From a virus (Duplodnaviria; Caudoviricetes): 59,655 nucleotides of DNA. Every line of letters begins with the position of its first letter. Within the stretch, counting starts at the first letter, position 1. Below the pieces are notes generated by a model, which did no database searches, was not told where the DNA came from, and saw only the letters and a program-made list of their open reading frames with translations. The stretch spans positions 1 to 59,655 of the IMG/VR virus record IMGVR_UViG_3300011113_000105, one strand, 5' to 3'. This document shows, piece after piece, positions 1 to 59,655 of the stretch. A program made the translations under genes and the position numbers.

Positions 1-226
1 TTGATTTATATAGCTTTTTCCTTGTTCCACCTCGATTCCAATTTTCGGTTCCGTTCCAACCCGATTTTTACACGTTCCGTCCCCACCGCCCCCCGCCTAT
101 CCCATAGATTCTCTTTCTCGCATACTCCCGCCTCGCTTCCACCCCCGCCCCTGCGGTACAAACGCTTTTGACCCACACCATCCCACAGACCGCAACACCG
201 TTACATAAAAAAGTTATACAAGAGTA

Positions 227-254
227 TTGTAGTAACAGAAAAAAATGTTATAAT
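227..254 (+). promoter_or_regulatory. Sigma70-type early promoter P1
   Basis: TTGTAG (227-232), 16 bp, TATAAT (249-254) with extended -10 TG; AT-rich upstream. Confidence 0.75.
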
Positions 255-260
255 AGAAAC

Positions 261-317
261 AAGTCGGGGAACATCCACAATGACCTCCGACTTAACGCTT
301 CCGGGTCACCCGAAGCG
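261..317 (+). ncRNA. Two-hairpin 5' leader RNA, copy 1
   Basis: AAGTCGGGG/CTCCGACTT stem (261-293) and CGCTTC(C)GGG-TCA-CCCGAAGCG hairpin (296-317), starting 7 nt after the -10 box. Confidence 0.55.
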
Positions 318-353
318 CAATTCAACCTAGTTCAACTCAGTCAGGAGTCAGTC

Positions 354-716
354 ATGAAATCTGTGCAGTTCTACATCTCCCCCGCTTCTCCGGGGTTCGA
401 GCAGTTGCCCCGTGCGGTGAAAGTCACGATTCGTAAGGCAACAATAATCCCACGTCCTGCACCTGCCCCGGTGCAAACGAAAACCTCCCTGGACACGGAC
501 CAAATCATTCGTGGTTTTGAGTCCGTCGACGACCCGTACGACGACGCGCATTACCTTGGCTCCAACAACATCGATGCGGATTTCGACATTGATGGCAGCT
601 TGGAGTTTTGCGATTCCGACGGATCGGAAGAACTATCTGGCTTGACGATCGTTGAGCCAGCCTACGGCAACCCGCTTGCCATTCGCCGTTACTTGAACGG
701 CTACGACATCCTGTAA
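354..716 (+). CDS. Early protein with strongly acidic C-terminal half
   Basis: AGGAG RBS before ATG 354; the ORF-track extension to 168 runs through the promoter; D/E-rich tail. Confidence 0.75.
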   Translation: MKSVQFYISPASPGFEQLPRAVKVTIRKATIIPRPAPAPVQTKTSLDTDQIIRGFESVDDPYDDAHYLGSNNIDADFDIDGSLEFCDSDGSEELSGLTIVEPAYGNPLAIRRYLNGYDIL

Positions 717-735
717 GCAATTCACGGAGGAAACG

Positions 736-855
736 ATGAACCCCGAATACAGCGAATTGATTTACATGCTCAGGAAGTGCCGCGCCGTGTTGAACATGGC
801 GGGTTACTACGACATGGTGGTTGCGATAGACAAACTTTTAGGAGAAACGGAATGA
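736..855 (+). CDS. Small hypothetical protein (39 aa)
   Basis: GGAGG RBS; MNPEYSELIYMLRKCRAVLNMAGYYDMVVAIDKLLGETE; ATGA overlap with next gene; below ORF-track cutoff. Confidence 0.65.
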   Translation: MNPEYSELIYMLRKCRAVLNMAGYYDMVVAIDKLLGETE

Positions 856-1181
856 AGATCAGAACAAGCGAACTCATTGGCAATGCCCTGGACTGGGCGG
901 TGTTGCAACTCGACGCGGAGAACCCGTCAAATGGGTTTTACTCCACGGATTGGGCCGATGGTGGGCCGATCATCGAGAGGGAAGAAATTGCCCTGGAGCC
1001 GATGACGGACAGTGACTACGGTGACGGGTGGTTGGCTACCCGCGTTGAGGGGCCAGCCGTGTGCATGGAGTTTGGGCCGACCATGTTGGTCGCGGCCATG
1101 CGTTGCTACGTCACGTCACACCTGGGTGATGAGATCGAAGTGCCAGACGAGCTAACCAAAAAAGTTGGTTCAAACGCTTGA
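852..1181 (+). CDS. NinX/DUF2591-like phage protein
   Basis: SELIGNALDWAV...YSTDWADGGPIIERE...GPTMLVAAMRCYV...GDEIEVPDEL; AGGAG RBS. Confidence 0.75.
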   Translation: MKIRTSELIGNALDWAVLQLDAENPSNGFYSTDWADGGPIIEREEIALEPMTDSDYGDGWLATRVEGPAVCMEFGPTMLVAAMRCYVTSHLGDEIEVPDELTKKVGSNA

Positions 1182-1206
1182 CCTACGTGTAAAGTTCCCC
1201 TATAAT
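1178..1206 (+). promoter_or_regulatory. Sigma70-type early promoter P2
   Basis: TTGACC, 17 bp, TATAAT; near consensus. Confidence 0.85.
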
Positions 1207-1212
1207 GGGGGC

Positions 1213-1269
1213 ATAGACCGAAGTGTCGCAATACACAACGGCTATCTAGTCCTTCCGGTATGTCGGAAG
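1213..1269 (+). ncRNA. Two-hairpin 5' leader RNA, copy 2
   Basis: ATAG(A)CCG-AA-GTGT...ACAC-AA-CGGCTAT (1213-1245) and CTTCCGG-TATG-TCGGAAG (1252-1269), starting 7 nt after the -10 box. Confidence 0.55.
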
Positions 1270-1301
1270 TCCAATCAGTCATCAATCAGTCAGGAGTCAG
1301 T

Positions 1302-1559
1302 ATGGGAACGCTCAAGTCCTTCTTCCACGATTACATCGCGGAACAGTCAGAGATTGATTTCTCTGCACATCCCTTCGCCCCGGATACGTGCTTCGTTCTG
1401 ATCGAGCACGACGTCACCACCGGGGAAACCAAACCCCTCCACGTCTACACCTTCCGCGCCGATGCGGAGGATGCACTGCGTCTGTTCGAGCACGGACAGA
1501 AAAACTTCCACATTCCCGAGTATCTCGACTACCGCATCGCGGAGGTGGTGCAGTCATGA
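1302..1559 (+). CDS. Hypothetical early protein
   Basis: AGGAG RBS before ATG 1302; ATGA overlap with next gene. Confidence 0.75.
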   Translation: MGTLKSFFHDYIAEQSEIDFSAHPFAPDTCFVLIEHDVTTGETKPLHVYTFRADAEDALRLFEHGQKNFHIPEYLDYRIAEVVQS

Positions 1560-1768
1560 CCAACCGAATGAAACCACTTTGCGCTGCGTGTGGTGACACG
1601 TTCAGCGCGGCACGTCGCACCGCCGGGTATCACTTGTGTATGCCATGCGGTGAGCAGCAAGCACGACGGTACAAGCACACCATCGTTCCGATGAACAAGA
1701 GCAACTACGTTGCAGTGACCGACTTAGCCCTTCTGACCCAACTGAACCCCAAAAGGACCGCATCATGA
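1556..1768 (+). CDS. C4 zinc-finger protein (DksA/TraR-like finger)
   Basis: CAACGD...RR..GY.LCMPC; GGAGG RBS; ATGA coupling at both ends. Confidence 0.7.
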   Translation: MTNRMKPLCAACGDTFSAARRTAGYHLCMPCGEQQARRYKHTIVPMNKSNYVAVTDLALLTQLNPKRTAS

Positions 1769-2703
1769 ACTTTGAACTCAACGCCCCCCGCCATCTGATT
1801 TCTTTGGCTTCCTCCGCGCTCATCGTGAGTGTGGACATCAAGACATGGACTGCGACCAAGCAGGACAAGTCCATCAGCAACGAGGTGACAACATCGAAGA
1901 ACGCCGACGCAGACGCTGCGCGTGTGACCAAAGTTTTGTTGTCCCATTCCCCCGAGCACAAGGCGCTGCTGAACTATCGGCAGACCGTCTATAACTGGCT
2001 TCAGCGTGAGACCTACGACTGGGCGGGTTCCATGCGGCTGCTGCCCACGTACAAGCTGGAGTCGTTCAAGAAACAATTCAACGACCACATGGCCGCGTTC
2101 AATGCGCTGCTCGACAAGTTCCTGGCCGCGTACCCTGGGCTCATCAGCGACGCTGCGTTCAAGCAGGGCGGGATGTTTAACCGTTCCGAGTACCCTGAAG
2201 TCCAAGATGTGCGCCGTCGGTTCAGCATGAAGTTGTTCACCCACGCCGTGCCTGAGAACGATTTCCGGTGCTCAATCTCCCAGGTGCTTGCCGACGACCT
2301 GAAAGAACATTACGAGGCACAGACGCAAGAGATTGTGGGCGGAGTCATGACCGATCTGACAAAGCGCCTTACGACCTACGCCACACGACTGCGCAACGCA
2401 TGCGAGGAAGTGCAAGCCGAGGCCAACGAGGAAGCGAAGTCGGGCAAGGCCAAGCGCAGGAAGATTTACGAGTCCACGTTCGACAACGTGAAGTCGATGG
2501 TGGACATGATTCGTAACTTCAATCTGACAAACGATGCCGATCTGACGGAGGCCGCGAACAAGCTGGAGGCGATCCTGGCCACGCGCTCGCTGTCTGACCT
2601 GCGGGACAGCGCAGTCGCACGAGCCGACACGCGTGATGACCTGAACGACATCCTGAGCAAGTTCGCACCGATCAACGTGGCCGAGGTGAGTGACGATGAA
2701 TAA
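1765..2703 (+). CDS. DUF3150-like phage protein
   Basis: LASSALIVSVDIKTWTATKQD N-terminus, helical body, NFNLTNDADL; usual neighbour of phage AAA/vWA pairs. Confidence 0.6.
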   Translation: MNFELNAPRHLISLASSALIVSVDIKTWTATKQDKSISNEVTTSKNADADAARVTKVLLSHSPEHKALLNYRQTVYNWLQRETYDWAGSMRLLPTYKLESFKKQFNDHMAAFNALLDKFLAAYPGLISDAAFKQGGMFNRSEYPEVQDVRRRFSMKLFTHAVPENDFRCSISQVLADDLKEHYEAQTQEIVGGVMTDLTKRLTTYATRLRNACEEVQAEANEEAKSGKAKRRKIYESTFDNVKSMVDMIRNFNLTNDADLTEAANKLEAILATRSLSDLRDSAVARADTRDDLNDILSKFAPINVAEVSDDE

Positions 2704-2896
2704 CGAGATGAAAGTAACGGTGCAAGCCAGGGGCCGATATGGCACTTGGTTTTATTACCCCGCGTGTGAGAAGGCCGAGCAGTTTCGGCAGATAGAAGGA
2801 GGCAAGACCCTGACCGCCCATGCTCTGAAGTGCATCAGACAGTTGGGCTACGAGATAGAGATCAATATAGAAGTTCCGACAACCCTGAATCGTTAA
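2696..2896 (+). CDS. Hypothetical protein
   Basis: ORF with GAGG RBS; YG...YYPACEKA motif. Confidence 0.65.
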   Translation: MNNEMKVTVQARGRYGTWFYYPACEKAEQFRQIEGGKTLTAHALKCIRQLGYEIEINIEVPTTLNR

Positions 2897-2913
2897 TCAC
2901 TGGAGAAACCAAA

Positions 2914-3984
2914 ATGGCTAAAGTCAATTTCCGCACCACCGTTTCCTTGGAAGAAGCCAAGAACATCATCCGTGTCACGGGTGACGTGGTGACCAACATC
3001 ATCATTTCCGAACCCGGTGTCGGCAAGTCCACGCTGCTCAAGATGCTGGAGGAGGAGATGGGCACGGATGAGTACGACTTCATCTACGTGGACTGCCCTG
3101 TGAAAGACATGATGGACATTGCCGCGTCCATCCCGAACCACACCACGAAGCAACTGGAGTATTACGTGTCGTCCCTGTTCAAGCTGGGCAATGGCAAGAA
3201 GAAGTGCATCATGCTCGACGAGTTCATGAAAGCACCGAAGCTGCTACAGGTAATTTTCACTCGGCTGATGCTTGAGCGTACGGTGGGCGACATCCCCCTG
3301 CCCGAAGGTTCGTACGTGTTCGCCACGTCGAATAACGCTTCCGATGGTGTCGGAGACGCAATGCTCGACCATGCGGGTAACCGTGTGTGCAAGCTCGACC
3401 TGCGCAAGTCCACCGCTGACGAGTGGAACATTTGGGCCACGAAGAACGGCGTGGCGCGTTCCATCCGTGCTTGGGCGGCGATGAACCCGAGAGCGTTCGC
3501 TAGCTATCTGGACGGCGATCAGGATGACAACCCATATATTTTCAACCCGGCAAAGGGCAAGCGTCAGTTCGTGTCTCCACGTTCCTTGGCTAAAGCGTCC
3601 GTGTTCGTGGATCGTAGGGATCAGTTGACCGAGAACGCGCTGACCGCTGCACTGGCTGGCACGATCGGTGAGGCTGCTGCCAAGTCACTCGCTGCGTTCA
3701 TCTCGCTGGAGTCCAAGCTCATCAAGACGAGCGATGTCATCAAGGCGCCGACGACCGTCCCGGTTCCCGATGATGTTTCTGTCCTGATCATGATGATGTT
3801 CGAGGCAGTGGACACGATAAAGGTTCAGGATGATCTGAGCAAGTATATGGAGTTCGTGAACCGCATCAAGGCAACCGAGGTCCAGTCCGTGTTCTTCGTG
3901 ATGATGCTGCGCACGAAGCCCAAGCTGGCCCGGTACAACATCGAGATTTCCAAGTGGGCCGTCGAGAACCACTACATCATGTGA
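2914..3984 (+). CDS. MoxR-like AAA+ ATPase
   Basis: Walker A SEPGVGKS, Walker B IMLDE, sensor ATSN, arginine-finger GNRV, SPRS; GGAG RBS. Confidence 0.85.
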   Translation: MAKVNFRTTVSLEEAKNIIRVTGDVVTNIIISEPGVGKSTLLKMLEEEMGTDEYDFIYVDCPVKDMMDIAASIPNHTTKQLEYYVSSLFKLGNGKKKCIMLDEFMKAPKLLQVIFTRLMLERTVGDIPLPEGSYVFATSNNASDGVGDAMLDHAGNRVCKLDLRKSTADEWNIWATKNGVARSIRAWAAMNPRAFASYLDGDQDDNPYIFNPAKGKRQFVSPRSLAKASVFVDRRDQLTENALTAALAGTIGEAAAKSLAAFISLESKLIKTSDVIKAPTTVPVPDDVSVLIMMMFEAVDTIKVQDDLSKYMEFVNRIKATEVQSVFFVMMLRTKPKLARYNIEISKWAVENHYIM

Positions 3985-3992
3985 GGTGAAAA

Positions 3993-4235
3993 ATGAACCC
4001 CAAACAACTTGAAAAGATAAACGAGCTCATCAAGCGTGTAGCGACAGTATTGAGAGAGGACATAGAGAGTGATGACGGGTGTATCGATCCGTTGGATCAC
4101 TTGACTGCACTCAGTCTCATGCTCTGCACATTCAGTATCGAAGCTGGGTTCAGCAGGGAACAATTCCTTGGCGGGATCACTAAAACCTACGACAGTGCAA
4201 TAAACAACCGGGGGCGTCATGCAACTAACGACTGA
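3993..4235 (+). CDS. Hypothetical protein between AAA and vWA genes
   Basis: GAGG RBS, 80 aa ORF. Confidence 0.6.
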   Translation: MNPKQLEKINELIKRVATVLREDIESDDGCIDPLDHLTALSLMLCTFSIEAGFSREQFLGGITKTYDSAINNRGRHATND

Positions 4236-5457
4236 ACAACGCATCAAGAAGGCGCACGTTGCGCTGATGAAGCATCCCGAGACAGCCCTGTTCTCGGGTG
4301 TGCTCATGCTTGGCGAAACGTCCGTGGTGGACGAGGGGATCACTGCGTACACCGATGGACTCAACAAGAAGTACGGTCGCGCGTTCGTTGAGGCTATCTG
4401 TAAGAAAGACTCACAGTTGAACGCACTGGTGTTGCACGAGAACTTGCACATCGTGTTCCGTCACCTGCTGCACAACCGTGATCTGTTTGTCGAGAACCGT
4501 CAACGCGCGAACATGGCGGCTGACTATGTGGTCAATGATGTCATCACGCACATCAAGGACAAATCATTGGTCGAGCTTCCGGTAGGCGCACTTGTCGATG
4601 ACAAGTATCACAACATGAACATGCGCGAGGTGTACCGTCTGCTCAAGGACGAGTGCGACGATGGTGACGGCGACGGTGGGTCGCAGGAACCGAAGCGCAG
4701 CAAGCAAGGTAACGGTTCCGGTGGGTCTGAACCCCAAGATGGGGAAGGCGGTGGTTACAAGTTCGACGACCACGACATCGACGGCGCGTCGCATGGCGCA
4801 ACCGCAGAGGAGATCAAGGAGATCGACACCAAGATCGATCGTGCTTTGCGTGAAGGCGCGTTGTTGGCTGGACGACTTGGCGCAAATCTTCCTCGCTCGA
4901 TCACCGAGTTGTTGGAGCCCAAGATCGATTGGCGTGCTGAGTTGCGTGAGTTCGTGTCGTCCTCGACCAAGGGCAAGGACGAGTTCACGTGGCGCAAGTT
5001 CAACCGTAGGCTTGTACCCAACGACATCTATCTGCCAACCGTAGAGAACGAAACGATTGGTGAGATTGTCGTGGCCATCGATACGTCAGGCTCGATCGAC
5101 CAAGCGCAAATCAACGCATTCGCCTCGGAACTGGCTTCGATCTGCGAGGCTGTGGAACCGGAAGCGGTCCGCGTTTTGTGGTGGGACACGATGGTGCACG
5201 GTGAGCAGCGGTTCGCTGACAACTATCAGAACATCGGGGGAATGCTCAAGCCGCAGGGCGGGGGTGGCACTCGCGTGGGGTGTGTCTCTGATTACATCAA
5301 CAAGCACAAGGTCAACGCCGAATGCGTGTTGGTGTTCACCGACGGCTACGTGGAGAACGATGTGAAGTGGAGCGTCAGTGCACCCACTCTGTGGCTTGTC
5401 ACGCACAACAAGCGTTGGACGCCGCCATCGGGTCGGGTTGTAGCTTTTGAACAGTAA
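4219..5457 (+). CDS. Metallopeptidase plus vWA domain protein (DUF2201-like)
   Basis: TAYTDG, HENLH (HExxH), NMAADYVVN, acidic/Gly linker, MIDAS DTSGS, GGGGT, FTDGY. Confidence 0.85.
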   Translation: MQLTTEQRIKKAHVALMKHPETALFSGVLMLGETSVVDEGITAYTDGLNKKYGRAFVEAICKKDSQLNALVLHENLHIVFRHLLHNRDLFVENRQRANMAADYVVNDVITHIKDKSLVELPVGALVDDKYHNMNMREVYRLLKDECDDGDGDGGSQEPKRSKQGNGSGGSEPQDGEGGGYKFDDHDIDGASHGATAEEIKEIDTKIDRALREGALLAGRLGANLPRSITELLEPKIDWRAELREFVSSSTKGKDEFTWRKFNRRLVPNDIYLPTVENETIGEIVVAIDTSGSIDQAQINAFASELASICEAVEPEAVRVLWWDTMVHGEQRFADNYQNIGGMLKPQGGGGTRVGCVSDYINKHKVNAECVLVFTDGYVENDVKWSVSAPTLWLVTHNKRWTPPSGRVVAFEQ

Positions 5458-5477
5458 CTTTCAGTTAGGAAACAGTC

Positions 5478-6500
5478 ATGTCATACAACGACATTGCGTG
5501 GGTGTCATACGACAAACTCAAGAACCGTTCACAGGCCATGCAGCCGTACGTGAACACAACAGATACCTTCCCGCTTGGGGATCGTAGGTACTCGCACCGT
5601 CACTTCCGTGTGAGGAACGATGGTGTGTTTGAGCTTTATCTCGGCAACCGTGAAGTGATCAACGCCGGTCTGGAGTCACGACCGTCGAAGCGGGGAGGGG
5701 ATAAGTACGCTGCGGAAGAATACGCTGGCAACTCTCTGATCGCGCGCGTGTACCCGGACAACTCGTTTGAGTTTCTCTCAAGACGCAGTGGTATGTCTGA
5801 TCTTCTTTTCTACAACGCGCTGATCCCCAACACGCGGATCAACTGCAACAACAGGTTCGGTGGGGGCGTGATGACCAATGGAGGTGCGTCCTCGCACACG
5901 CATCCTCTGTTCCACGGACTGCGCGTGAACCTGAGTGATCTCTCGGTGCATCCCACGACAGACTATGTAACGTATCTGCCGACCCTGAACCGCAAAGAAG
6001 GCAAGCAGTTCAGCGCGGGGTTCGATGAGTTCCACAAGACGTGGCGCGTTCTGTTCGAGCCCATGCAGAGAAGCGCGTACTCTGAGATCGTGCGGGATTT
6101 ATCCGAGGAATATCCCGCTGTGTTTACTGAGGTGCTCGGTTTCCACAAACAGTCAAACCATTACACGAACCCTTCGATTGATGGACAAGAACTGACCAAC
6201 ATGATCCTTGACCTGATCTCCAAGAAACGGTACGCCGATGCTGCGTTGGCCAGCCTTGGCTACAACTACTCTTGGGTGCTGTATCGCATTTACAAGAATC
6301 ACAAGGAGAACATCAACTACATCTACAACTTTGATCCGACGCTTGCCAAGTCAATATCCAAGTTGACCGAGAACTGCATGAAGCACACGCCTCGGTTGTT
6401 CTCGCACCGCGCCATCGAGTCCGGCGCACCGTTAGTAGCGACCAAGTGGGGGCTGATCACCATGCTCAAGTCCACTGGCGAAACCGTAGTCCGTCTGTAA
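5478..6500 (+). CDS. Hypothetical protein
   Basis: 340 aa ORF, AGGA RBS. Confidence 0.75.
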   Translation: MSYNDIAWVSYDKLKNRSQAMQPYVNTTDTFPLGDRRYSHRHFRVRNDGVFELYLGNREVINAGLESRPSKRGGDKYAAEEYAGNSLIARVYPDNSFEFLSRRSGMSDLLFYNALIPNTRINCNNRFGGGVMTNGGASSHTHPLFHGLRVNLSDLSVHPTTDYVTYLPTLNRKEGKQFSAGFDEFHKTWRVLFEPMQRSAYSEIVRDLSEEYPAVFTEVLGFHKQSNHYTNPSIDGQELTNMILDLISKKRYADAALASLGYNYSWVLYRIYKNHKENINYIYNFDPTLAKSISKLTENCMKHTPRLFSHRAIESGAPLVATKWGLITMLKSTGETVVRL

Positions 6501-6515
6501 TCACAGGAGAAAGTC

Positions 6516-7451
6516 ATGGAGAACCTCATTTCCCACATCGCTGATCGTGATCGCACGATGAAGTTTTTTGAGTCAGACAACGCAAGGGTGTTGTTACTGA
6601 GAAATCTCGTTCGCGAGTTCTGCTACACCTTCAACACCAGGGTGGGCTTCCTCGCAAGTAAGGATTCAGACGGGACTGAAGCCCTCTACCGCAATCAACC
6701 GACCATCCCGATCTACACCATCGAAGGCATGCCGTGCGGCACTCTGAGGGTCAAGTTCGACCATGAGGGTGACTTCTACGCGTTCAACTCAAGCATGGTC
6801 TGCAAGGAGAAGGCGAGTGCTCGCAGTGACAAGTACACGCGCGACTCTACGACCGTCAAGGGGCTCATCAACGCAATCAAGCGCAACAAGGAGATTCCAT
6901 CCCTGGAAGGTTGTATGACCCGATACAAGTACGGGATCGGGGACGCACTGCGCGCGACCTCTCGCGGCATTGATCGTCCGAATATCAACCTCTCATCCGA
7001 AGCGATGCTTGAACTGGTCAAGATGTATCTCGGTGAGACTGCGTACGTGATGCCGCACGACGACTCCATCCGTAAGGCGTATTCAGATTATCTTGAAAAG
7101 GCCGCTACGAACAGCGAGATGGAGAAAAACTTTAACCGCTTCAAGGAGGGGTGCAGAGGTATCGGCGTTCTCTCCACCGACGAGAAGCCCATCTATCTTG
7201 TGAGCGACATCACGTGGGTAGGGGACACGCCGAATGTCACCAATATAACCATTCACAAATCGCTGAGCGAGAACGAGCGCGTGGCGGGTGACGCCATGAT
7301 GATCCGCACGTTCATGCAGGGTAACAACGGTACATCTGACAACGAACTGGGCGTCAGGACATCTGACCGTTACTACGCTGACATCGACGTTGCCACAGGC
7401 TATAACAATCACGAGTGCGTTTGGGTTCTCATCCCCAACCGTGGTGAATGA
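6516..7451 (+). CDS. Hypothetical protein
   Basis: 311 aa ORF, AGGAG RBS. Confidence 0.75.
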   Translation: MENLISHIADRDRTMKFFESDNARVLLLRNLVREFCYTFNTRVGFLASKDSDGTEALYRNQPTIPIYTIEGMPCGTLRVKFDHEGDFYAFNSSMVCKEKASARSDKYTRDSTTVKGLINAIKRNKEIPSLEGCMTRYKYGIGDALRATSRGIDRPNINLSSEAMLELVKMYLGETAYVMPHDDSIRKAYSDYLEKAATNSEMEKNFNRFKEGCRGIGVLSTDEKPIYLVSDITWVGDTPNVTNITIHKSLSENERVAGDAMMIRTFMQGNNGTSDNELGVRTSDRYYADIDVATGYNNHECVWVLIPNRGE

Positions 7452-7804
7452 ACGATCCGTGGGACAGACGACTCTATGCTCCGGTTGCCCATCCCGATCG
7501 TGATATGTATCGTGTTCCTGTGTGGGTCAGCGATGATGAGATCGCTATCGGCCTCGGCAGAGACATCTTTAGATACTACACACGCGCAAACGCCCCGAAG
7601 AAATTGAAGGCGGCGCTTGCGATGGTCAGCGCGTTTCCACAGGACAGCCGACCGGAGTGGGCGGTGAACCCGACAAGCGCGTACGTGCCGATGGACAACA
7701 GACAGAGAGACATAGGCTGGAGATTGACGGACGACTTCTACATCCTCGTCTTGGATGAAGAATTCCTCAACAATTGTTATCTGAGAGGATCAGGAGATGG
7801 CTGA
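7448..7804 (+). CDS. Hypothetical protein
   Basis: ATGA-coupled 118 aa ORF. Confidence 0.7.
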   Translation: MNDPWDRRLYAPVAHPDRDMYRVPVWVSDDEIAIGLGRDIFRYYTRANAPKKLKAALAMVSAFPQDSRPEWAVNPTSAYVPMDNRQRDIGWRLTDDFYILVLDEEFLNNCYLRGSGDG

Positions 7805-8105
7805 CACTCCCGAGAGAAAAGTTAAGAAGAAGGTAATCGATATTCTCAAACGGCGCGGAGCGTACTACGCTATGCCTGTGGCAAGCGGGTTTGGGAACGC
7901 GGGTGTCCCCGACATCCTCGCGTGTCTGAAGGGTCACTTTGTGGCGATTGAGTGCAAGGCCAACGGTGGCAAGTGCACGAAGCTGCAACTGTCGAACCTA
8001 GAGCAGATACAGCAAGCTGGGGGAACCGCCTTGGTGATCGATGAAACAAACATGCACGTATTGGAAGCAGTGTTGAACAGTATCAGCCCGGAGACAAAAC
8101 CATGA
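7797..8105 (+). CDS. VRR-NUC domain nuclease / Holliday junction resolvase-like
   Basis: TPERKVK...GVPDILAC..GHFVAIECKA...LQ...I..AGG.A.VI. Confidence 0.85.
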   Translation: MADTPERKVKKKVIDILKRRGAYYAMPVASGFGNAGVPDILACLKGHFVAIECKANGGKCTKLQLSNLEQIQQAGGTALVIDETNMHVLEAVLNSISPETKP

Positions 8106-8266
8106 ACACGAAACTGTTGGAGATGGCGCGTAAGTTGTGGAACGTGGACTACGTTCCTTCCGAAGTCAATCGGCGCAACCAATTGAAATGGGCGCGTTCG
8201 ATCCACAGATTGGGGGACAAATGGCTACTCGCAAAGTACGTACAAAAGAAAACCGGACTCCACTGA
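8102..8266 (+). CDS. Small hypothetical protein (54 aa)
   Basis: MNTKLLEMARKLWNVDYVPSEVNRRNQLKWARSIHRLGDKWLLAK...; ATGA coupling, GGAG RBS. Confidence 0.65.
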   Translation: MNTKLLEMARKLWNVDYVPSEVNRRNQLKWARSIHRLGDKWLLAKYVQKKTGLH

Positions 8267-8376
8267 AGGAACCACAACCGAGCGTATGGCCCTTCCCGAC
8301 GTACAAGGGTCAGCCGTACAAGGCTCCACGCAAGAAACGAATTAAGCCTTCCGACTACCCGGAAGCGTTGTTTTAG
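8221..8376 (+). CDS. Small basic protein (WPFPT motif)
   Basis: GGGGA RBS; MATRKVR...VWPFPTYKG...YPEALF; overlaps previous ORF by 46 nt. Confidence 0.5.
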   Translation: MATRKVRTKENRTPLKEPQPSVWPFPTYKGQPYKAPRKKRIKPSDYPEALF

Positions 8377-8385
8377 GAGACGAAC

Positions 8386-8505
8386 ATGCAACGAATGCAA
8401 GACGATGGACTCGACGAACTGGGCTGGGCCGCAGCAATGCTCGCGGCGCTGGGCTTTTTGTTCTTCGCGATTGTGTATTTCTTTCACTGGGCGGGGTGGC
8501 TATGA
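8386..8505 (+). CDS. Small membrane peptide (39 aa)
   Basis: AGGAG RBS; MQRMQDDGLDELGWAAAMLAALGFLFFAIVYFFHWAGWL; ATGA coupling. Confidence 0.6.
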   Translation: MQRMQDDGLDELGWAAAMLAALGFLFFAIVYFFHWAGWL

Positions 8506-8717
8506 GTAGAGAAGACATCATCCGACTGGCGCGGGAAGCGGGGTTTGCTGATGGCGTGGTAGAGATTGTCGGGCTAGAAGGCTTTTCCCAGTTCGCCGCC
8601 CTTGTCGCCAAGGAAGAACGCACCCGCATCTACGAGATGCTGATCAAGATGCACACGCAGGAAGAGCGCCACAACTACTACATGTTCATCGCCAACATCA
8701 TCAAGGAGTCGGCATGA
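8502..8717 (+). CDS. Hypothetical phage protein
   Basis: MSREDIIRLAREAG...FAALVA..ER pattern, frequent in small phage early genes. Confidence 0.7.
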   Translation: MSREDIIRLAREAGFADGVVEIVGLEGFSQFAALVAKEERTRIYEMLIKMHTQEERHNYYMFIANIIKESA

Positions 8718-8830
8718 AGTTGGTGGACTTCATCGCAATGGCGTGGCTACTGGCTCTGTTCCTGTGCGCGCTACTGTCGCCGTTCGTCATGCTTGGCATG
8801 ATCATTTCTTACCTGTGGGGAGTGATATGA
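8714..8830 (+). CDS. Small membrane peptide (38 aa)
   Basis: AAGGAG RBS; MKLVDFIAMAWLLALFLCALLSPFVMLGMIISYLWGVI; ATGA coupling at both ends. Confidence 0.6.
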   Translation: MKLVDFIAMAWLLALFLCALLSPFVMLGMIISYLWGVI

Positions 8831-9003
8831 ACCACATCGACCTGCTCAAACTCTGCCATGCCTATCTGCGTGGTGCGGAGATCAACGAACCAACCGGACG
8901 CAAGCCCATCGATCGTGACACACTTGCGCGTTTGATCAACCTTTACCTCAACGAACATCATGCCGTTCAGTCTCCCGAAGTACACATGGGACAAGGATCG
9001 TGA
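8827..9003 (+). CDS. Hypothetical protein
   Basis: GGGAG RBS, ATGA-coupled. Confidence 0.55.
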   Translation: MNHIDLLKLCHAYLRGAEINEPTGRKPIDRDTLARLINLYLNEHHAVQSPEVHMGQGS

Positions 9004-9220
9004 ACTCTGTAAGCAATGCAAACATTACGAGGAACGTGCGCACAATTCTGGACACAACGCAGGAATTGTGGTCATGCTCTGCCACGCCAACCCGCACAAG
9101 GGACGAAGGGGCATCGGCAGTTGCATCGACAACCGTCATCGAGGACCGTGTGGCCCACTCGGCAGCATGTTCCACCCCATCAACGTCTACAGGAAAGGAT
9201 TAGCAATCGGTGCAGACTAA
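8960..9220 (+). CDS. Cys/His-rich hypothetical protein (putative metal-binding)
   Basis: CKQCKHY...C...C...CGP. Confidence 0.55.
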   Translation: MPFSLPKYTWDKDRELCKQCKHYEERAHNSGHNAGIVVMLCHANPHKGRRGIGSCIDNRHRGPCGPLGSMFHPINVYRKGLAIGAD

Positions 9221-9237
9221 GTGATACACAAAATCAA

Positions 9238-9266
9238 TTGACATAAGTGTAAAGAGGGCGCATCAT
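9238..9266 (+). promoter_or_regulatory. Sigma70-type promoter P3
   Basis: TTGACA, 17 bp, CATCAT; intergenic; shares 15/18 nt with the P2 -35 region. Confidence 0.65.
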
Positions 9267-9305
9267 GCGCGTCCCTGTTTGTCTAATCCAGTAAGGAGAG
9301 TCTTT

Positions 9306-9779
9306 ATGGCAACCGCCAAAAAACCCCGTAAGTCCCGCATGACCATCACGAAGTTCATTCAGTCCAACCCGAGCGCGAAGGCAGCAGACATCGCCAAGCA
9401 ACTCGGTGTTTCAGTCGCATCGGTCTACATCGCGCGCAGCAAGCTCAAGAAGCTGAATGCCGCTTCTGCCAAGGCAGAAGGCGTAAACATCGACAAGGTG
9501 CACAAGCCCAAGAAGGTGTTCCACGAGGACGTCACGGCGCTTGCGTTCGACCCGAAGATGGATGTTCAGACCTCCCACGTTATTGACTTTGTCAATCACC
9601 CGCCTCACTACAAGGTGGGCGGCGTCGAGACGATCGACTTCATCGAGGCCAAGGGTCTTGGCTACAACCTCGGCAACGTGGTGAAGTACGTCACTCGGGC
9701 AGACCACAAGGGTTCCCGCAAGGAGAACTTGGAGAAAGCGCGTTGGTATCTTGAGCGCGAACTGTCGCGTTGCGCGTAA
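9306..9779 (+). CDS. HTH plus DUF3310 (T7 gp1.7-like) fusion protein
   Basis: AADIAKQLGVSVASVY (HTH); VNHPPHY..GGVETIDFI...GNVVKYVTRA.HKG...ENLEKARWYL; AAGGAG RBS. Confidence 0.8.
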   Translation: MATAKKPRKSRMTITKFIQSNPSAKAADIAKQLGVSVASVYIARSKLKKLNAASAKAEGVNIDKVHKPKKVFHEDVTALAFDPKMDVQTSHVIDFVNHPPHYKVGGVETIDFIEAKGLGYNLGNVVKYVTRADHKGSRKENLEKARWYLERELSRCA

Positions 9780-9780
9780 G

Positions 9781-9810
9781 AAGGGGGGCCGCATGGCCTC
9801 CCCTTTTTTG
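9781..9810 (+). terminator. Rho-independent terminator
   Basis: GGGGGGCC-GCAT-GGCCTCCC followed by TTTTTT. Confidence 0.8.
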
Positions 9811-9841
9811 TCCAAAAACTTCTTTAGATAGCGGTGCTGAC

Positions 9842-11707
9842 TTGAGTCTGATCACACTAGACTTTGAAACTTATTACGCAGATGACTTCAGTCTCACGAG
9901 GCTGACCACTGAGGAATACATACGCGACCCGCGCTTTGAAGTGATCGGTGTTGCGGTTCAGTTGGACGACGGCGAGCCCATGTGGTTCTCGGGCAACCGG
10001 GAAGAAACACGCAAGTGGCTGCTCCAGTTCAACTGGAAGGAGAGCGTCATGCTCGCCCACAACACCCTGTTCGATGGCGCGATCCTGCACTGGCACTTCG
10101 GCATCACTCCGATGGGGTTTGTTGATACGTTGTGCATGGCTCGCGCGCTTCACGGCGTGGAGGTGGGCGGCTCCCTGGCCAAGCTCGCCGAGCGTTATCA
10201 GATCGGCGTCAAAGGTGACGAGGTTGTCCATGCCAAGGGGAAGAATCGATGCCAGTTCTCTGCCGATGACTTGGCGCGATACGGTGGGTATTGCTGCAAC
10301 GATGTGCGCCTGACGTACGACTTGTTCACCAAGATGTACCGGGGTCTGCCGATGGAGGAGTTGCGTCTGATCGACATGACTCTGAGGATGTTCACTCATC
10401 CGATGCTGTACGTAGACGAGGCAGCCCTACAGGAGCGACTCGATGCGCTGATAAAGGAACAAAACGATTTGCTCGACACACTCAAGGAGCGCCTTGAGTG
10501 CGAGACAGGCGAGGAAGTTCGCAAGAAACTGTCGAGCAACAAGCAGTTCGCTGAGGTGTTGAAGTCCTTCGGGATCGAGCCGCCCGTGAAGATCAGCCCG
10601 ACCACGGGCAAAGAAACGTGGGCGCTTGCCAAAAAGGATGAAGGCTTCATAGCTCTGACGGAACACGACGACCCGTTCGTGCAACAGTTGTGCGCGGTGC
10701 GCCTTGGAACCAAGTCCACTTTGGAAGAGGGCCGCATCAAGCGGTTCATGGAGATTGGTCAGCGCAACGGTGGAAGCATTCCGATCCCCCTGAAGTACTA
10801 CGGAGCGCACACGGGTCGGTGGTCGGGCACGGACAAGGTGAACTTCCAGAACCTGCCGAGCCGCGATCCCAAGAAAAAAGCTCTCAAGAAAGCCATCATT
10901 CCGCCCGACGGCTACAAGATCATCAATTCAGATTCATCACAGATTGAGGCGCGGGTGCTCGCGTGGCTCGCGGGTCAAGAGGATGTGGTGCAGCAGTTTG
11001 CCAACGGGCAGGACGTGTACTCCATCTTTGCCTCATCGGTATATGGACGGACTATCACCAAGGCCGATCCCATAGAAAGATTTGTGGGCAAGACCTGCAT
11101 CTTGGGTCTGGGCTACGGGACTGGAGCGTTGAAACTTCAGCACACCCTGGCCACCACGCCACCTGGGGCCAAGCTCGACGAGGACGAGTGCAAGCGGATC
11201 GTCAGCGTGTACCGCAGCAAGAACCACAAGATCATCGACTTGTGGGAGGACTCAGACCGGATGCTGTCGGCCATGATGGAGGGCAACATCAAGCACCCCC
11301 TGCCGCTGGGCATGCACGAATGTGTCTACTATGACAACGAGGGCGTAATACTCCCTAACGGATTGCGCATCCGATACCCCAATTTACGACGAGCCGAGAA
11401 GGATGGCAAGTCCCGTATCGTCTATGACTCTCGCAAGGGAGAGGTCGGGATTTGGGGCGGGGCCGTGGTAGAAAACATCGTGCAAGCCCTGGCGCGGATC
11501 ATCGTGGGCACACAGATGGTCGAGATCAACGACACCTACAAGGTTGTGCTCACGGTGCACGACGCCGCCGTGATCGTCGTGCCTGACGACGAGGTCGAGA
11601 GCGCCACGAATCTGATAATCAAGATCATGTCTACGCCGCCCGAGTGGGCCACGGGTTTACCCGTAGCTTGTGAAGCCAAAGTAGGAGCGACCTATGGCGA
11701 CTGTTGA
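9842..11707 (+). CDS. polA: DNA polymerase, family A, with 3'-5' exonuclease
   Basis: ExoI DFETY, AHN..FD, YCCND; HTGRWSG, NFQNLP, motif A DSSQIEARV, motif B RFVGKTCILGLGYG, motif C TVHDA; probable TTG start at 9842. Confidence 0.95.
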   Translation: MSLITLDFETYYADDFSLTRLTTEEYIRDPRFEVIGVAVQLDDGEPMWFSGNREETRKWLLQFNWKESVMLAHNTLFDGAILHWHFGITPMGFVDTLCMARALHGVEVGGSLAKLAERYQIGVKGDEVVHAKGKNRCQFSADDLARYGGYCCNDVRLTYDLFTKMYRGLPMEELRLIDMTLRMFTHPMLYVDEAALQERLDALIKEQNDLLDTLKERLECETGEEVRKKLSSNKQFAEVLKSFGIEPPVKISPTTGKETWALAKKDEGFIALTEHDDPFVQQLCAVRLGTKSTLEEGRIKRFMEIGQRNGGSIPIPLKYYGAHTGRWSGTDKVNFQNLPSRDPKKKALKKAIIPPDGYKIINSDSSQIEARVLAWLAGQEDVVQQFANGQDVYSIFASSVYGRTITKADPIERFVGKTCILGLGYGTGALKLQHTLATTPPGAKLDEDECKRIVSVYRSKNHKIIDLWEDSDRMLSAMMEGNIKHPLPLGMHECVYYDNEGVILPNGLRIRYPNLRRAEKDGKSRIVYDSRKGEVGIWGGAVVENIVQALARIIVGTQMVEINDTYKVVLTVHDAAVIVVPDDEVESATNLIIKIMSTPPEWATGLPVACEAKVGATYGDC

Positions 11708-12596
11708 GAAATGGGAGTGCGGTCTACCGTACAACCCCCCACCGTTCGGTAGCCCAAACAGCACCACCTATTACAACTGGTGGAAAGCCGAGCGCGATCG
11801 GAGGTTGGCGGCGGCAGTCGCGGAGCATGCCCCTGACTTTGCGACGGAGAAGGCGGCGAGTGCCCTGCTGCGCAGGATATTCGACAACGAAGGCTGGACC
11901 TACGAAGAACAAGTGCGCACCAAAAGCGGCAAGGCGATCGACTTCGTGGTCGAGGGGCGCGACATCTACGGTGTGGTCGTGAAGTTCGGAGTCGAGTGCA
12001 AGCGCAAAATGACCAAGTACCACGAGGACGGGCTGGCCGCGACTGTCCTGGCTGACTATCTTGAACAAGCCGCAGCATACTCACGGGACTTGGAGATGCC
12101 TGTGTTCATCGGGCCGGTGCTGACCAACCGATCCCCGAGCAGTATGCACACCGGAGGTCGTAGCGTGGAGTCGGTGTGTGCGCTAAACATTTTTGGCGGC
12201 AGACTGAACGTCGGCACGCTGGTCGTCAACAACGCGCGCTTCCTCCAGTGGTTCATGATCCTGCGCGGCGCGGCCTTTTGGCAAAGCGGAAAATTCAACC
12301 AGAGCAGGTTGAATATGGTATGTTCTACGGGATCGAAAAAAGAGCGTAGGTCTATCAATGACAGTCAAGATTCAGTGGTCGTACTCGGGGCTCAAGGACT
12401 TCAAGAACTGCCCCCGCCAGTACAACGAAGTCAAGGTTCTGAAGCGGTTTGTAAAGAAACAAACCAAGCAGATGCTGTATGGAACGGAAGTGCATTCAGC
12501 ACTGGAGAACTACGTCAAGGACGGAACTCCACTGCCGAAGAACTACGAGATGTACCGCAAGCAACTCGACCCGCTAAGGGAGATGGATGGAACTAA
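11694..12596 (+). CDS. PD-(D/E)XK restriction-endonuclease-like protein
   Basis: E...IDFVV...GVECKRK...QAAAY; AGGAG RBS; 3' end overlaps the next gene by 239 nt. Confidence 0.6.
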   Translation: MATVEKWECGLPYNPPPFGSPNSTTYYNWWKAERDRRLAAAVAEHAPDFATEKAASALLRRIFDNEGWTYEEQVRTKSGKAIDFVVEGRDIYGVVVKFGVECKRKMTKYHEDGLAATVLADYLEQAAAYSRDLEMPVFIGPVLTNRSPSSMHTGGRSVESVCALNIFGGRLNVGTLVVNNARFLQWFMILRGAAFWQSGKFNQSRLNMVCSTGSKKERRSINDSQDSVVVLGAQGLQELPPPVQRSQGSEAVCKETNQADAVWNGSAFSTGELRQGRNSTAEELRDVPQATRPAKGDGWN

Positions 12597-13020
12597 GTTT
12601 CCTGAACATCAGATGGCGGTCACCGAGAGCCGAGAGCCTTGCGACTTCAAGTCCCCTGACTACTGGGTTCGTGGCATTGCAGACTTGCTGGTGATCGACG
12701 GCGAGTATGGCTTCATTGTTGACTACAAGACAGGCAGCAACCGCTACCCCGATCCCAAGCAGTTGCAACTCATGGCGCTACTTGCCTTTTCTCACTTCCC
12801 TGAAGTCCAACATATCAAGGCGGGCCTGTTGTTCGTGGCGCATGAACACTTCGTCACTAGCGAATACTCCCGTAGCAATCAAGAGCGACTTTGGGCAGAC
12901 TTCCACGGCGACCTAGAGCGCCTGCGGCTGTCGATGCTCAACGACACTTGGCAACCCAACCCCACGCCGCTGTGCGGCTGGTGTCCCGTTAAAACCTGCG
13001 AGTTCCACAAAGAAAAATGA
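12358..13020 (+). CDS. Cas4/RecB-like PD-(D/E)XK exonuclease
   Basis: WSYS...CPRQY, G..VH, RGIADLL, VDYKTG, QLQL, C-terminal CGWC...C (four Cys). Confidence 0.85.
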   Translation: MTVKIQWSYSGLKDFKNCPRQYNEVKVLKRFVKKQTKQMLYGTEVHSALENYVKDGTPLPKNYEMYRKQLDPLREMDGTKFPEHQMAVTESREPCDFKSPDYWVRGIADLLVIDGEYGFIVDYKTGSNRYPDPKQLQLMALLAFSHFPEVQHIKAGLLFVAHEHFVTSEYSRSNQERLWADFHGDLERLRLSMLNDTWQPNPTPLCGWCPVKTCEFHKEK

Positions 13021-13226
13021 AAGACACGATCGTTGACTACGCGATGCCCTGCATGAACGCAGAGCGCGCCCTGAAAGAAGCACACAACGCTGTGCTTGAG
13101 AATGATTACGACGCAGCCATCAGTGCTGCCATGCGCGCCACGGGCGAATGCCGTTTGCTCGTGGTGTCCCTCAAGGGAATGAAGGAGCAACAAAATGCCC
13201 TACGTAAACAAGCCACGCCCGTATAA
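13017..13226 (+). CDS. Hypothetical protein
   Basis: ATGA-coupled ORF. Confidence 0.6.
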   Translation: MKDTIVDYAMPCMNAERALKEAHNAVLENDYDAAISAAMRATGECRLLVVSLKGMKEQQNALRKQATPV

Positions 13227-13512
13227 GAAAGAGTACCAGCAGCAGAAGGCGCGCGGTGAACTCGCTGCGCGTATGGAGCGCCAACGCGCCCGGCGAGCGT
13301 ACGATAAGAAACACCCGGACGATCCGAACGATAAGGATAAAACCGCCGAGTCCCGTGAGGGCAAAGACCTTGCGCACAAGAAGGCGCTGTCTAAAGGTGG
13401 AAACAACAAAGACGGCACGTTCGTGCAGAGCGCAAGCGGCAATCGATCCTTCAAGCGAGCGTCGTCAGGCGCACTGCTGTCCGAGGTCAGCAAGCGTGAA
13501 CGAAAGAAGTAA
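13195..13512 (+). CDS. HNH-like endonuclease, small and basic
   Basis: GKDLAHKKALSKGG.N......S..NRS; AAGGAG RBS. Confidence 0.65.
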   Translation: MPYVNKPRPYKKEYQQQKARGELAARMERQRARRAYDKKHPDDPNDKDKTAESREGKDLAHKKALSKGGNNKDGTFVQSASGNRSFKRASSGALLSEVSKRERKK

Positions 13513-13535
13513 GGGTTTTTCCTGCTCGACGTAAC

Positions 13536-13563
13536 TTGACATTTTCGAGTTCGTCGCCACAAT
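13536..13563 (+). promoter_or_regulatory. Sigma70-type promoter P4
   Basis: TTGACA, 16 bp, CACAAT; intergenic. Confidence 0.6.
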
Positions 13564-13569
13564 AAGCAT

Positions 13570-13735
13570 GTCGGTCGTTAGGCGCAAGTGGACTGAGAGC
13601 TAAGGCTCATAGGGTTTCGCGTTGGCCCGATAACTGCGTCAGTTAGTCGGTGAGGTTTCTCCTGGGGGCCGCAGACCCCTCTTCCTTTGCTCACGTCTGG
13701 ACTGACCGGCTTGGGGGGACCGTTTCCCCCCACTT
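13570..13735 (+). ncRNA. Putative structured ncRNA or long leader
   Basis: 5' end 13570-13584 complementary to 13694-13710; internal hairpins; 3' hairpin TGGGGGGA-CCGTT-TCCCCCCA (13712-13732). Confidence 0.5.
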
Positions 13736-13749
13736 TAGTCACATCAAGT

Positions 13750-15733: not shown

Positions 15734-15744
15734 GGACTTACCAA

Positions 15745-16922: not shown

Positions 16923-16939
16923 TTGCATCCTGTTGTAAC

Positions 16940-16961
16940 GGCGGAGGTGTCTCCGCCTTTT
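16940..16961 (+). terminator. Rho-independent terminator / attenuator before primase
   Basis: GGCGGAG-GTGT-CTCCGCC-TTTT. Confidence 0.7.
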
Positions 16962-16974
16962 CGTCTCTGCGGAC

Positions 16975-59479: not shown

Positions 59480-59655
59480 AGGAGGAAAAGGGCACTCCAA
59501 AGTTGACATCAATATAGCACGGCTTTTTGAAAGGAGGTAGGGACTCCTACCGGGGGGTGTTGGGAAAGTAGAAGTTATTACACCTAGGGTTTTTACTTAA
59601 AAGGGGGGAGGGGGGTGCGGGGAAGTTTGGGAAGTGGTGTGGTGATTTGCGCGGA

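Follow-up and report, generated by a model that had tools for sequence, protein, structure and literature searches.

The window analysed here is the whole of one IMG/VR virus record (IMGVR_UViG_3300011113_000105; 59,655 bases; estimated completeness, 94%), and the subject of this report is a leader of two hairpins, HP1 and HP2, that lies directly behind each of its two early promoters, P1 and P2. The plus-strand genes of 1-19.8 kb encode small early proteins, a MoxR-like ATPase, a VWA/metallopeptidase protein, a family A DNA polymerase, a PD-(D/E)XK nuclease, an SNF2 helicase and a primase-helicase, and the minus-strand genes of 20-59.5 kb encode virion and lysis proteins, the portal and the terminase. 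No RNA polymerase, integrase or repressor family was detected among the window proteins by Pfam and PHROG scans and by comparison with solved polymerases. Judged from its genes, the phage is a lytic podovirus that depends on host RNA polymerase.

Against phage records, megablast of window positions 1-4000 gave no match, and tblastn with TerL and the ATPase gave distant relatives only (<60% identity); the nearest cultured phages by TerL (approximately 42-53% identity) were DSL-LC04, the pelagiphages HTVC027P and HTVC023P, and the cyanophage MinM2. The sequence also turns up in freshwater and aquatic metagenomes. Among 185,579 species genomes no relative of the ATPase was detected, and the host's own boxA is thus outside the comparisons made below. 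Two metatranscriptome contigs cover the leaders, one spanning 1235-1450 and the other 227-430 (extending upstream of the predicted start); note that such contigs show neither starts, strand nor level.

Anatomy of the leaders

The features of the two leaders, and of a third copy of their second part, are listed below (nt, nucleotides; bp, base pairs; z, deviation from 200 shuffles; fractions of 200, shuffles folding as well).

227..254, plus strand: early promoter P1; TTGTAG 227-232, 16-nt spacer, TGtTATAAT (extended -10), TATAAT 249-254; promoters of the same type are present in relatives.
261..293, plus strand: HP1 of leader 1; 9-bp stem, 2x2 internal loop, 3-bp stem, 5-nt loop; -12.9 kcal/mol, z -2.86, 1/200.
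290..294, plus strand: linear motif A-n-T-T-A (ACTTA) of leader 1; the last A is invariant and 5 nt ahead of the TC of HP2.
296..317, plus strand: HP2 of leader 1; CGCTTCCGGG TCA CCCGAAGCG; invariant TC 300-301 and GA 312-313; -11.0 kcal/mol, z -2.74, 4/200.
318..353, plus strand: spacer and Shine-Dalgarno sequence of leader 1; unstructured, C/A/U-rich, with TTCAA/TCAG repeats, then a 16-mer (337-352) with AGGAG; ATG at 354.
1178..1206, plus strand: early promoter P2; TTGACC 1178-1183, 17-nt spacer with the motif GTGTAAAG, TATAAT 1201-1206; 11/12 matches.
1213..1245, plus strand: HP1 of leader 2; 4 bp, bulge, 3 bp, 2x2 AA/AA loop, 4 bp, 6-nt loop; -9.1 kcal/mol, z -2.88, 4/200.
1244..1248, plus strand: linear motif of leader 2, variant ATCTA, in which C replaces the first T.
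1252..1269, plus strand: HP2 of leader 2; CTTCCG GTATGT CGGAAG, arms as in leader 1 and a different loop; -7.2 kcal/mol, z -3.58, 1/200.
1270..1301, plus strand: spacer and Shine-Dalgarno sequence of leader 2; CAATCAGTCA repeats, then the 16-mer (1286-1301); ATG at 1302.
8340..8365, plus strand: third copy, HP2 module only; AATTA, 5 nt, CTTCCG ACTACC CGGAAG; without promoter or HP1, 21 nt upstream of ATG 8387.

An initial annotation of the sequence had placed TATAAT boxes at 249-254 and 1201-1206, a stem-loop of exactly 33 nt starting 7 nt after each of them (261-293 and 1213-1245), second hairpins at 296-317 and 1252-1269, and one 16-mer at 337-352 and 1286-1301; the boxes and the exact 16-mers were read at these positions, and folding returned all four hairpins. 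The 16-mer, TCAGTCAGGAGTCAGT, contains the Shine-Dalgarno sequence AGGAG just ahead of ATG 354 and ATG 1302, the starts of the first gene behind each promoter (five matches with three or fewer mismatches, 0.36 expected). Three viral contigs, two of them relatives, contain the exact 16-mer.

HP1 of leader 1 begins 7 nt past the -10 box, that is, at or next to the predicted 5' end, and the HP1 sequences of the two leaders are unrelated to each other. In the closest relative (L005, 90% identical), G268->A in leader 1 retains its pair (G-U to A-U) and T281->A disrupts the upper stem, and HP1 of leader 2 has changes at 9 of 33 positions with its folding retained (-12.1 kcal/mol). An AA internal loop in the 5' arm and a CAAT near the apex, which had been pointed out as common to the two copies of HP1, are present in both of them but are treated as a coincidence because they are not kept in L005 (CACAAAG, GACAGT). 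The module-only copy at 8340-8365 has the same HP2 arms as both leaders, approximately 0.1 such sites per strand being expected in shuffles. When entire leaders were folded, 261-356 gave z -3.04 (0/200) and 1213-1304 gave z -0.83 only (34/200); two copies alone were weak evidence, and relatives were therefore searched.

Conservation among related loci

Sixty related loci were collected by the ATPase and scanned for a promoter followed by hairpins, which yielded 56 unique candidates; eight inside genes were removed by eye, and 35 of the remaining 48 were aligned with MAFFT. The alignment was almost gapless (74 columns from 68-nt inputs). A covariance model (R1) built on it was searched over 759,296 bases and gave 63 matches at E<1e-4, all 63 on the early-gene strand and exactly two of them in the window (258-325 and 1212-1279). 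By this kind of search, which the initial annotation had proposed for phage genomes, the leader was recovered in 45 of 62 related sources, in 18 of them with at least two copies (67 best R1 matches). In five complete relatives (63-64.5 kb), full-length matches at E<1e-4 lie within approximately 3 kb of the early region, and weaker or partial ones within approximately 9 kb. Against HK022 and four cultured distant relatives, R1 at E<=1 found nothing beyond two chance-level matches, none of them in HK022. Comparison with Rfam, likewise proposed at the outset, returned no family: the entire window was without a match at the gathering threshold, and positions 150-1400 at E<=10 gave one chance snoRNA match (E 4.8).

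The sequence logo of the 56 unique leaders combines free and fixed positions. The linker between the hairpins has the consensus Y-n-A-n-T-T-A, followed 5 nt on by T-T-C-A...T-G-A-A; A(-6) is found in 56 of 56, T(-7) in 51, T(-8) in 48 and A(-10) in 43, and C(+1) and G(+12), always 10 nt apart, are invariant (56 of 56). The 5' arm of HP1 contains GG (51/56 and 43/56). A -10 hexamer (at least 5 of 6 matches) ends 44-49 nt upstream of the TC of HP2 in 50 of 55 unique leaders. Downstream of HP2 follows an unstructured C/A/U-rich spacer of 1-47 nt with TTCA/TCAG repeats, and then the Shine-Dalgarno sequence.

The pattern is beyond chance because relatives carry it, and not on account of the two window copies alone. 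Family conservation, together with the covariation of HP2 and the statistics of HP1 given below, agrees with the earlier proposal that the leaders are a selected element, conserved in structure and divergent in sequence, directly behind sigma70-type early promoters. No description of the motif was found in the literature, which was covered mostly at the level of listings and abstracts; on comparative grounds the leader is a real, conserved element that has so far not been described. Separately, a palindrome in a conserved gene of several relatives (at approximately 10,040 in L021, among others) has no such site at the homologous position of the window (approximately 7220-7255, in the open reading frame 6516-7451) and was treated as a coding coincidence.

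The second hairpin

For HP2, 54 sequences were aligned, namely 52 of 55 unique leaders (three were omitted as mis-anchored or redundant) and two module-only copies, one of which has a wrong start; 51 rows were distinct. Paired cells amounted to 83.6% versus 68.6% in shuffles (0 of 500 as high) and 20-46% in slid controls, and double changes to 62 cells versus 20.0 +/- 3.4 (0 of 500), with compensatory changes in seven of the eight pairs. HP2 is thus a covarying helix. Its arms were compared in 13 genomes from distinct groups (28 copies, including one mis-anchored copy, which only weakens the test): arm identity was 0.85 within and 0.57 between genomes (0 of 5,000 permutations), while the corresponding values were 0.41 and 0.39 for HP1 (747 of 5,000), 0.36 and 0.27 for the HP2 loop (428 of 5,000), and 0.34 and 0.29 for the downstream spacer. 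At least 10 arm classes were distinguished (including CTTCCGG, that of the window, and TTTCAC, CTTCAGG, ATTCGGG, ATCGGA, CGTCAGG, TCCAGC, TCAGC, GTCGGA, TCCACG and GTCACA), each common to the 2-5 copies of its genome. On this pattern, gene conversion cannot account for identical arms around differing loops. Since the arms are concerted within a genome and divergent between genomes, we infer that a phage-specific trans-acting reader of HP2 exists.

Such a reader could act on DNA. HP2 would then be a double-stranded operator, an inverted repeat (core TTCA-N8-TGAA with phage-specific arms) at approximately +38 to +58 of each early promoter and at a few other sites, whose phage protein would block RNA polymerase or load onto it (early-gene shut-off by an orientation-dependent roadblock, or a Q-like loader), and HP1 would be a separate RNA hairpin. 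Concerted arms are what an operator would have, and the invariance of T-C and G-A at their fixed 10-nt gap in all 56 leaders suits it, whereas the single orientation of all copies relative to transcription does not, nor does the A-n-T-T-A flank, which is always upstream and has no mirror image. The distance to the -10 box stays fixed at the 44-49 nt given above despite the variable architecture of HP1, which favours a site on DNA; note that +38 to +58 is outside the polymerase footprint, so that an operator leaves the fixed distance unexplained too. The mismatches can be cited on both sides: the inner pairs are often mismatched (12 and 18 of 51), as an operator would tolerate, but G-T exceeds A-C mismatches by 27 to 5 (53 leaders; mainly the outer pair), as expected if HP2 is read as RNA. 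Similarly, HP2 has no strand asymmetry (mean minimum free energy -6.65 kcal/mol for the sense strand and -6.19 for the complement; sense better in 28, worse in 22 and equal in 4 of 54), and its central tetranucleotide is GNRA in 7 of 54 versus approximately 3% expected, the former in line with DNA and the latter with RNA. Copies of the module away from transcript 5' ends (8340-8365 in the window; 5-13 nt upstream of an extended -10 box in L015, L058, L033 and L039) add to the case for an operator, as do two early/middle proteins whose translations (9297-9779 and 16584-16922) look helix-turn-helix-like (DUF3310, for 9297-9779, was the sole Pfam match), although the family scans of the window proteins detected no repressor family. 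On balance, an operator seems possible but rather doubtful.

Phage-specific sites of this kind have a parallel in repressor operators and in the 'stoperators' of mycobacteriophage L5, asymmetric 13-mers of a temperate phage with a known repressor: they are likewise short, in one orientation to transcription and in short non-coding stretches near gene starts. Unlike those, HP2 is an inverted repeat with an upstream A-n-T-T-A and is coupled to an RNA-level 5' hairpin, and no repressor or integrase was found in the window.

The first hairpin

HP1 was evaluated in 48 of 50 promoter-linked leaders (two were removed as mis-anchored). Its median minimum free energy was -11.8 kcal/mol, as compared with -4.15 for random 34-nt windows taken from these loci; values of -9.0 or lower were reached by 40 of 48 leaders (10% of controls), and 36 of 48 had z below -2. 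In 44 of 48, the first paired base is 5-9 nt past the -10 box (starts being predicted). In 40 of 48, the sense strand folds more stably than the complement (means, -11.7 and -8.2 kcal/mol), and G-U makes up 68 of 464 pairs. Loops are of 4-15 nt. Among 29 close pairs of leaders (at least 80% identity; the pairs are not independent), changes occurred at 42 of 592 paired versus 65 of 510 unpaired bases, and 27 of the 42 one-sided changes retain the pair. When folds were projected across leaders of at least 55% identity, one-sided changes lost the pair in 1015 cases and kept it in 431, and double changes kept it in 275 and lost it in 227; HP1 structures do not carry over from one subclade to another. 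By these comparisons, the architecture of HP1 turns over between subclades, and HP1 is an RNA-level hairpin that is generic in sequence. Its free sequence and architecture, combined with a constantly stable hairpin at approximately +1, fit a 5'-end cap and not a docking fold.

A factor-independent antiterminator RNA that binds host RNA polymerase directly, like put of phage HK022, was the reading preferred in the initial annotation. put acts alone, on the zinc-binding domain of the RNA polymerase beta' subunit, and the window phage also depends on host polymerase. As in HK022 putL and putR, two stem-loops stand right behind early promoters with the first pair at the extreme 5' end (from approximately +1 to +3); the overall length of the window-type leaders is strictly conserved. 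The available part of a report on putL gives two stem-loops in 73 nt just downstream of PL, with pairs from A3 to C72 and the first pair at +3 (PMC9378689). The geometry resembles that of putL, but no further similarity to put was supported. The leaders have approximately 58 nt versus approximately 72 nt for put, the whole HK022 genome, searched with R1 and not in reverse with a put model, has no match at E<=1, the -10-like NANNAT (an element of putL stem I) is found at approximately +16 to +32 in only 4 of 49 promoter-linked leaders, and the architecture of HP1 is not positionally conserved between subclades (the 1015 losses against 431 pairs kept), as a polymerase-docking fold should be. Arms that differ among phages and are in phase within each genome imply a trans factor and are not predicted for a ligand of host polymerase; the terminator at 9.8 kb, which the leader had been supposed to overcome, is not conserved either (see below). 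A put-like action is therefore unlikely.

The two alternatives named alongside it fared differently. A 5'-end stabiliser fits HP1 well (a stable hairpin near the predicted 5' end in 44 of 48 leaders). A processing site for RNase III is unlikely: such a site of the T7 R0.3 type needs a long, roughly two-turn helix, and the helices here are short (HP1, at most 12 pairs broken by loops; HP2, 6-9 pairs).

The stabiliser can be extended to the whole leader, which would then govern the fate of early mRNA: HP1 as a 5' stabiliser, A-n-U-U-A as an RNase E-type or other processing site, and HP2 as the 5' hairpin of the processed message or as an operator bound by a phage-specific RNA-binding protein, which would set when early messages decay or are translated. 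Parallels would be the logic of T4 RegA/RegB and the architecture of the ompA 5' untranslated region. A stabiliser with a 5'-terminal stem-loop was reportedly worked out for ompA in the Belasco laboratory. The leaders share that layout (5'-terminal hairpin, single strand, second hairpin, unstructured ribosome-binding site), and a sequence-free HP1 at approximately +1 in 44 of 48 is what a 5'-terminal stabiliser needs; ompA, however, requires no invariant bases or phage-specific arms, and a passive stabiliser would leave these, as well as the fixed total length, unexplained. Fixed length and concerted arms thus exceed passive protection. Module-only copies lie 20-45 nt upstream of start codons, as a control of message fate would suggest, whereas HP2 does not overlap the ribosome-binding site. 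The T7 A1 and A2 early transcripts are likewise predicted to start with hairpins. For RNase E, a core motif RN|WUU with U+2 as the key base is given in the available part of one source (PMC5222698). A(-10) n|U(-8) U(-7) of the leaders fits four of its five positions, including U+2 (R in 52, W in 53 and U+2 in 51 of 56 leaders), but U+3 is replaced by an invariant A, and in leader 1 A-C-U-U of the motif is paired within the HP1 stem. Pfam and PHROG scans detected no phage RNase or RNA-binding family. We consider control of message fate doubtful, but it is, like a DNA operator, a serious rival of the reading favoured below.

The hairpins might also be promoters in DNA, of the N4 type (5-7 bp stem, 3-nt loop), for a virion RNA polymerase. 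The candidate would be the 2355-amino-acid virion-type protein encoded by 20031-27098 on the minus strand, in which LPD38 (residues 2051-2220) is the sole Pfam match and a proline-rich linker is present. Residues 780-1039 match PHROG 2206 ('virion RNA polymerase') weakly (E 4e-12), yet the protein matched no solved RNA polymerase, N4 mini-vRNAP included, at E<=1. Canonical sigma70 promoters are conserved immediately upstream of the leaders, and the loop lengths of 4-15 nt, the G-U pairs and the sense-strand RNA asymmetry of HP1 all speak against N4-type promoters; this already disfavoured reading is very improbable.

Proposed function of the leader

A lytic phage that encodes no RNA polymerase has to direct the host enzyme through its early, middle and late programmes, by mechanisms that are largely unknown outside a few model phages. 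In the abundant uncultured clade of freshwater phages treated here, a recurring and sharply delimited control element accompanies every early promoter. Covariation, invariant bases, fixed geometry and a concerted recognition helix form an unusually clean set of comparative signals and together point to a phage-specific regulator. We tentatively favour the reading that the leader joins a 5'-capping hairpin to a nut-like loading site for a phage-specific factor (probability, roughly 0.3). The first 57-58 transcribed bases behind each early sigma70-type promoter would be a composite control leader. HP1, starting at or within approximately 2 nt of the 5' end, would cap the early mRNA against 5'-end-dependent decay. 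The second part would be a bipartite recognition module (an invariant single-stranded A-n-U-U-A, exactly 5 nt, and HP2 with its invariant U-C...G-A core) read on nascent RNA as a nut-like site, the conserved linear motif serving a conserved, possibly host, factor and the phage-specific helix a putative phage-encoded one. The complex would stay attached to host RNA polymerase during promoter escape and would render the enzyme resistant to termination or polarity over the early/replication operon of approximately 20 kb. In this proposal, the anatomy, the conservation, the covariation, the RNA-strand bias of HP1 and the concerted arms are observations, whereas the start sites, the reading of HP2 as RNA, the factor and its effect on elongation are deductions.

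The model for this proposal is the nut site of lambda, in which a conserved linear boxA is combined with a phage-specific boxB hairpin whose loop is the determinant for binding of N. As in lambdoid phages with nut and N, the site would be a promoter-proximal, bipartite one on early RNA, its conserved linear motif stands at a fixed spacing from a phage-specific hairpin common to the copies of a genome, extra copies are found inside the operon (compare nutR), and host RNA polymerase is needed over long operons. The window phage differs in being a lytic podovirus with, in its clade, 2-5 copies on one strand, in its linear motif and in the variation of its HP2 loops, and no N-like protein was found.

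Several points weigh against this reading. The linear motif fails as boxA: that comparison had been prompted by single leaders (for example L042, CTCTTTAAC), and was dropped when 0 of 54 matched the consensus and 0 of 54 the lambda sequence CGCTCTTA. The consensus GYTCTTTAANA, for which C4A means loss of function according to the accessible part of its source (PMC5725501), is gamma-proteobacterial and may not be that of the host; at the position equivalent to C4, 43 of 56 leaders have A and 3 have C. HP2 loops vary among the copies of one genome, unlike boxB. The 5' ends at the base of HP1 are predicted only, and five copies ('class 0') have no recognisable sigma70 -10 box. The fixed C-G gap, the mismatched inner pairs and the fixed distance on DNA to the promoter suit a DNA operator equally, and HP2 is as stable in one strand as in the other. 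No N-like protein was identified, the small early proteins being without Pfam or PHROG matches.

The terminators give mixed testimony. Two strong internal ones, T1 (9783-9802) and T2 (16940-16957), precede the genes for the polymerase and the primase, and neither is followed by a consensus promoter. It had been suggested that the leader possibly lets transcription pass both of these. Of 76 related loci, however, only 3 have T1 at the corresponding position, and in 67 no strong terminator lies within 100-800 nt upstream of the matching stretch of the polymerase gene, which also counts against the favoured reading. The leader is therefore not tied to that terminator, and that host polymerase must be carried through an operon of approximately 20 kb is a general argument only.

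T7 provides a further comparison. It is also a lytic podovirus, with strong sigma70 early promoters (A1-A3) at its leading end and a structured leader ahead of its first early gene, and its A1 transcript has a predicted initial hairpin (+2 to +36, minimum free energy fold). Unlike the window leaders, T7 has a perfect boxA (GCTCTTTAACA) before gene 0.3 and a long RNase III hairpin, shared by three promoters; in the window, the promoters do not share a leader, each being followed by a short one of its own that includes a short phage-specific hairpin and lacks boxA. A 5' hairpin on early transcripts of host polymerase is accordingly not unique, whereas a short phage-specific second hairpin at a fixed distance is.

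If the favoured reading is taken a step further, the leader may belong to a new system of processive antitermination, or of elongation control, in lytic polymerase-less podoviruses, with A-n-U-U-A and a phage-specific helix, at a constant distance from each early promoter, as its signals, a phage protein that reads the stem and not the loop, and at least 10 arm classes in freshwater relatives; this is put forward as a possibility, and a doubtful one. An RNA-tethered elongation switch, if real, would be a new family next to N/nut, Q, put and RfaH/ops. Short and portable, the element lends itself to tests in reporter or in vitro systems, and in metagenomic phage contigs it would mark early promoters and the leading end of the genome.

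Candidate partner proteins

Two early gene products were considered as partners of the leader. The first gene behind P1 (354-716) encodes a net acidic protein of a conserved family, with the basic patch LPRxxRKxLRxxT near the N terminus and a strongly acidic C-terminal half that ends in GLTIVEP...RRWLKGYD(V/I)L; no family match (Pfam, PHROG) and no usable protein-atlas match was obtained for it. From its sequence, an N-like reader is as conceivable as an Ocr-like early protein. The second gene behind P2 (1556-1768) encodes a 70-amino-acid C4 zinc-ribbon protein (CxxCG...ARR...LCxxCG, then KHTIVPM-KSNY) that keeps this place in 55 of 61 sources and is without a Pfam or PHROGs family; its zinc knuckle presumably resembles the TraR/DksA finger. 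This protein was rejected as the specificity factor, near-identical proteins occurring with different arms (for example, L033 and L015), a further point that does not help the nut-like reading.

Other features of promoters and gene blocks

A promoter scan detected P2 (11/12) and missed P1, and promoter-like sites in 1-20000 were not enriched (7 versus 8.8 +/- 2.6 in shuffles). The spacers of P2 (1184-1200) and of a third sigma70-like promoter, P3 (9244-9260; TTGACA at 9238, CATCAT 9261-9266), have TA(A/C)GTGTAAAG in common, and TGT[AC]AAG is found in the promoter spacer region of 30 of 49 promoter-linked leaders; the shared motif may be the binding site of a regulator within the promoter. The -10 boxes of P2 (1196-1211) and P3 (9255-9275) lie in the loops of inverted repeats (CCCC TATAAT GGGG and GGGCGC ATCAT GCGCGTCCC, respectively).

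L005 has approximately 3.7 kb between the small terminase gene and P1 that are missing from the window record (L005:535-3720, compared with window ends 59513-59655 and 1-226), and this extra part contains four or five plus-strand genes, a strong terminator and a repeat field. In some relatives, 'class 0' copies lie 3' of a terminator and a conserved TTGATACCAGTTATGTGT... motif and 5' of an ATTCCAA repeat field. The motif TTGAT(A/G)CCAGTT(A/C)TGTGT(T)GTCGCCGCG stands right behind strong terminators and ahead of 'class 0' HP2 modules, without a sigma70 -10 box (L011:540-562, L021, L008:863, L015:2044 and 2958, L053:2237, L005 approximately 3110), and possibly represents a different class of promoter; the window, which is without the corresponding region, does not contain this motif. 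Between the class 0 site and P1, repeats of (G)ATTCCAA / TTGGAAT occur in both orientations (window 1-110, L053:2290-2800, L005:3130-3700), the window beginning inside the field. The repeats look iteron-like, and the field could be an origin or a protein-binding array.

Within the 39-codon open reading frame 8387-8503, approximately 56 nt past the internal HP2 module, a hairpin of -18.2 kcal/mol (8421-8455) is followed by TTTTTGTTC and may be an internal terminator. On the minus strand, a module-like site at 9465-9495 (TTACGC CTTCTGCC TTGG GGCAGAAG, then ATTCAG) lies in the open reading frame 9297-9779 and is probably due to chance. Where the plus- and minus-strand gene blocks converge, a hairpin of -22.3 kcal/mol with a T-run (19865-19899) is probably the end terminator of the early/middle operon, and the late genes on the minus strand include two for 2OG-Fe(II) oxygenases (37553-38143 and 40582-41202).

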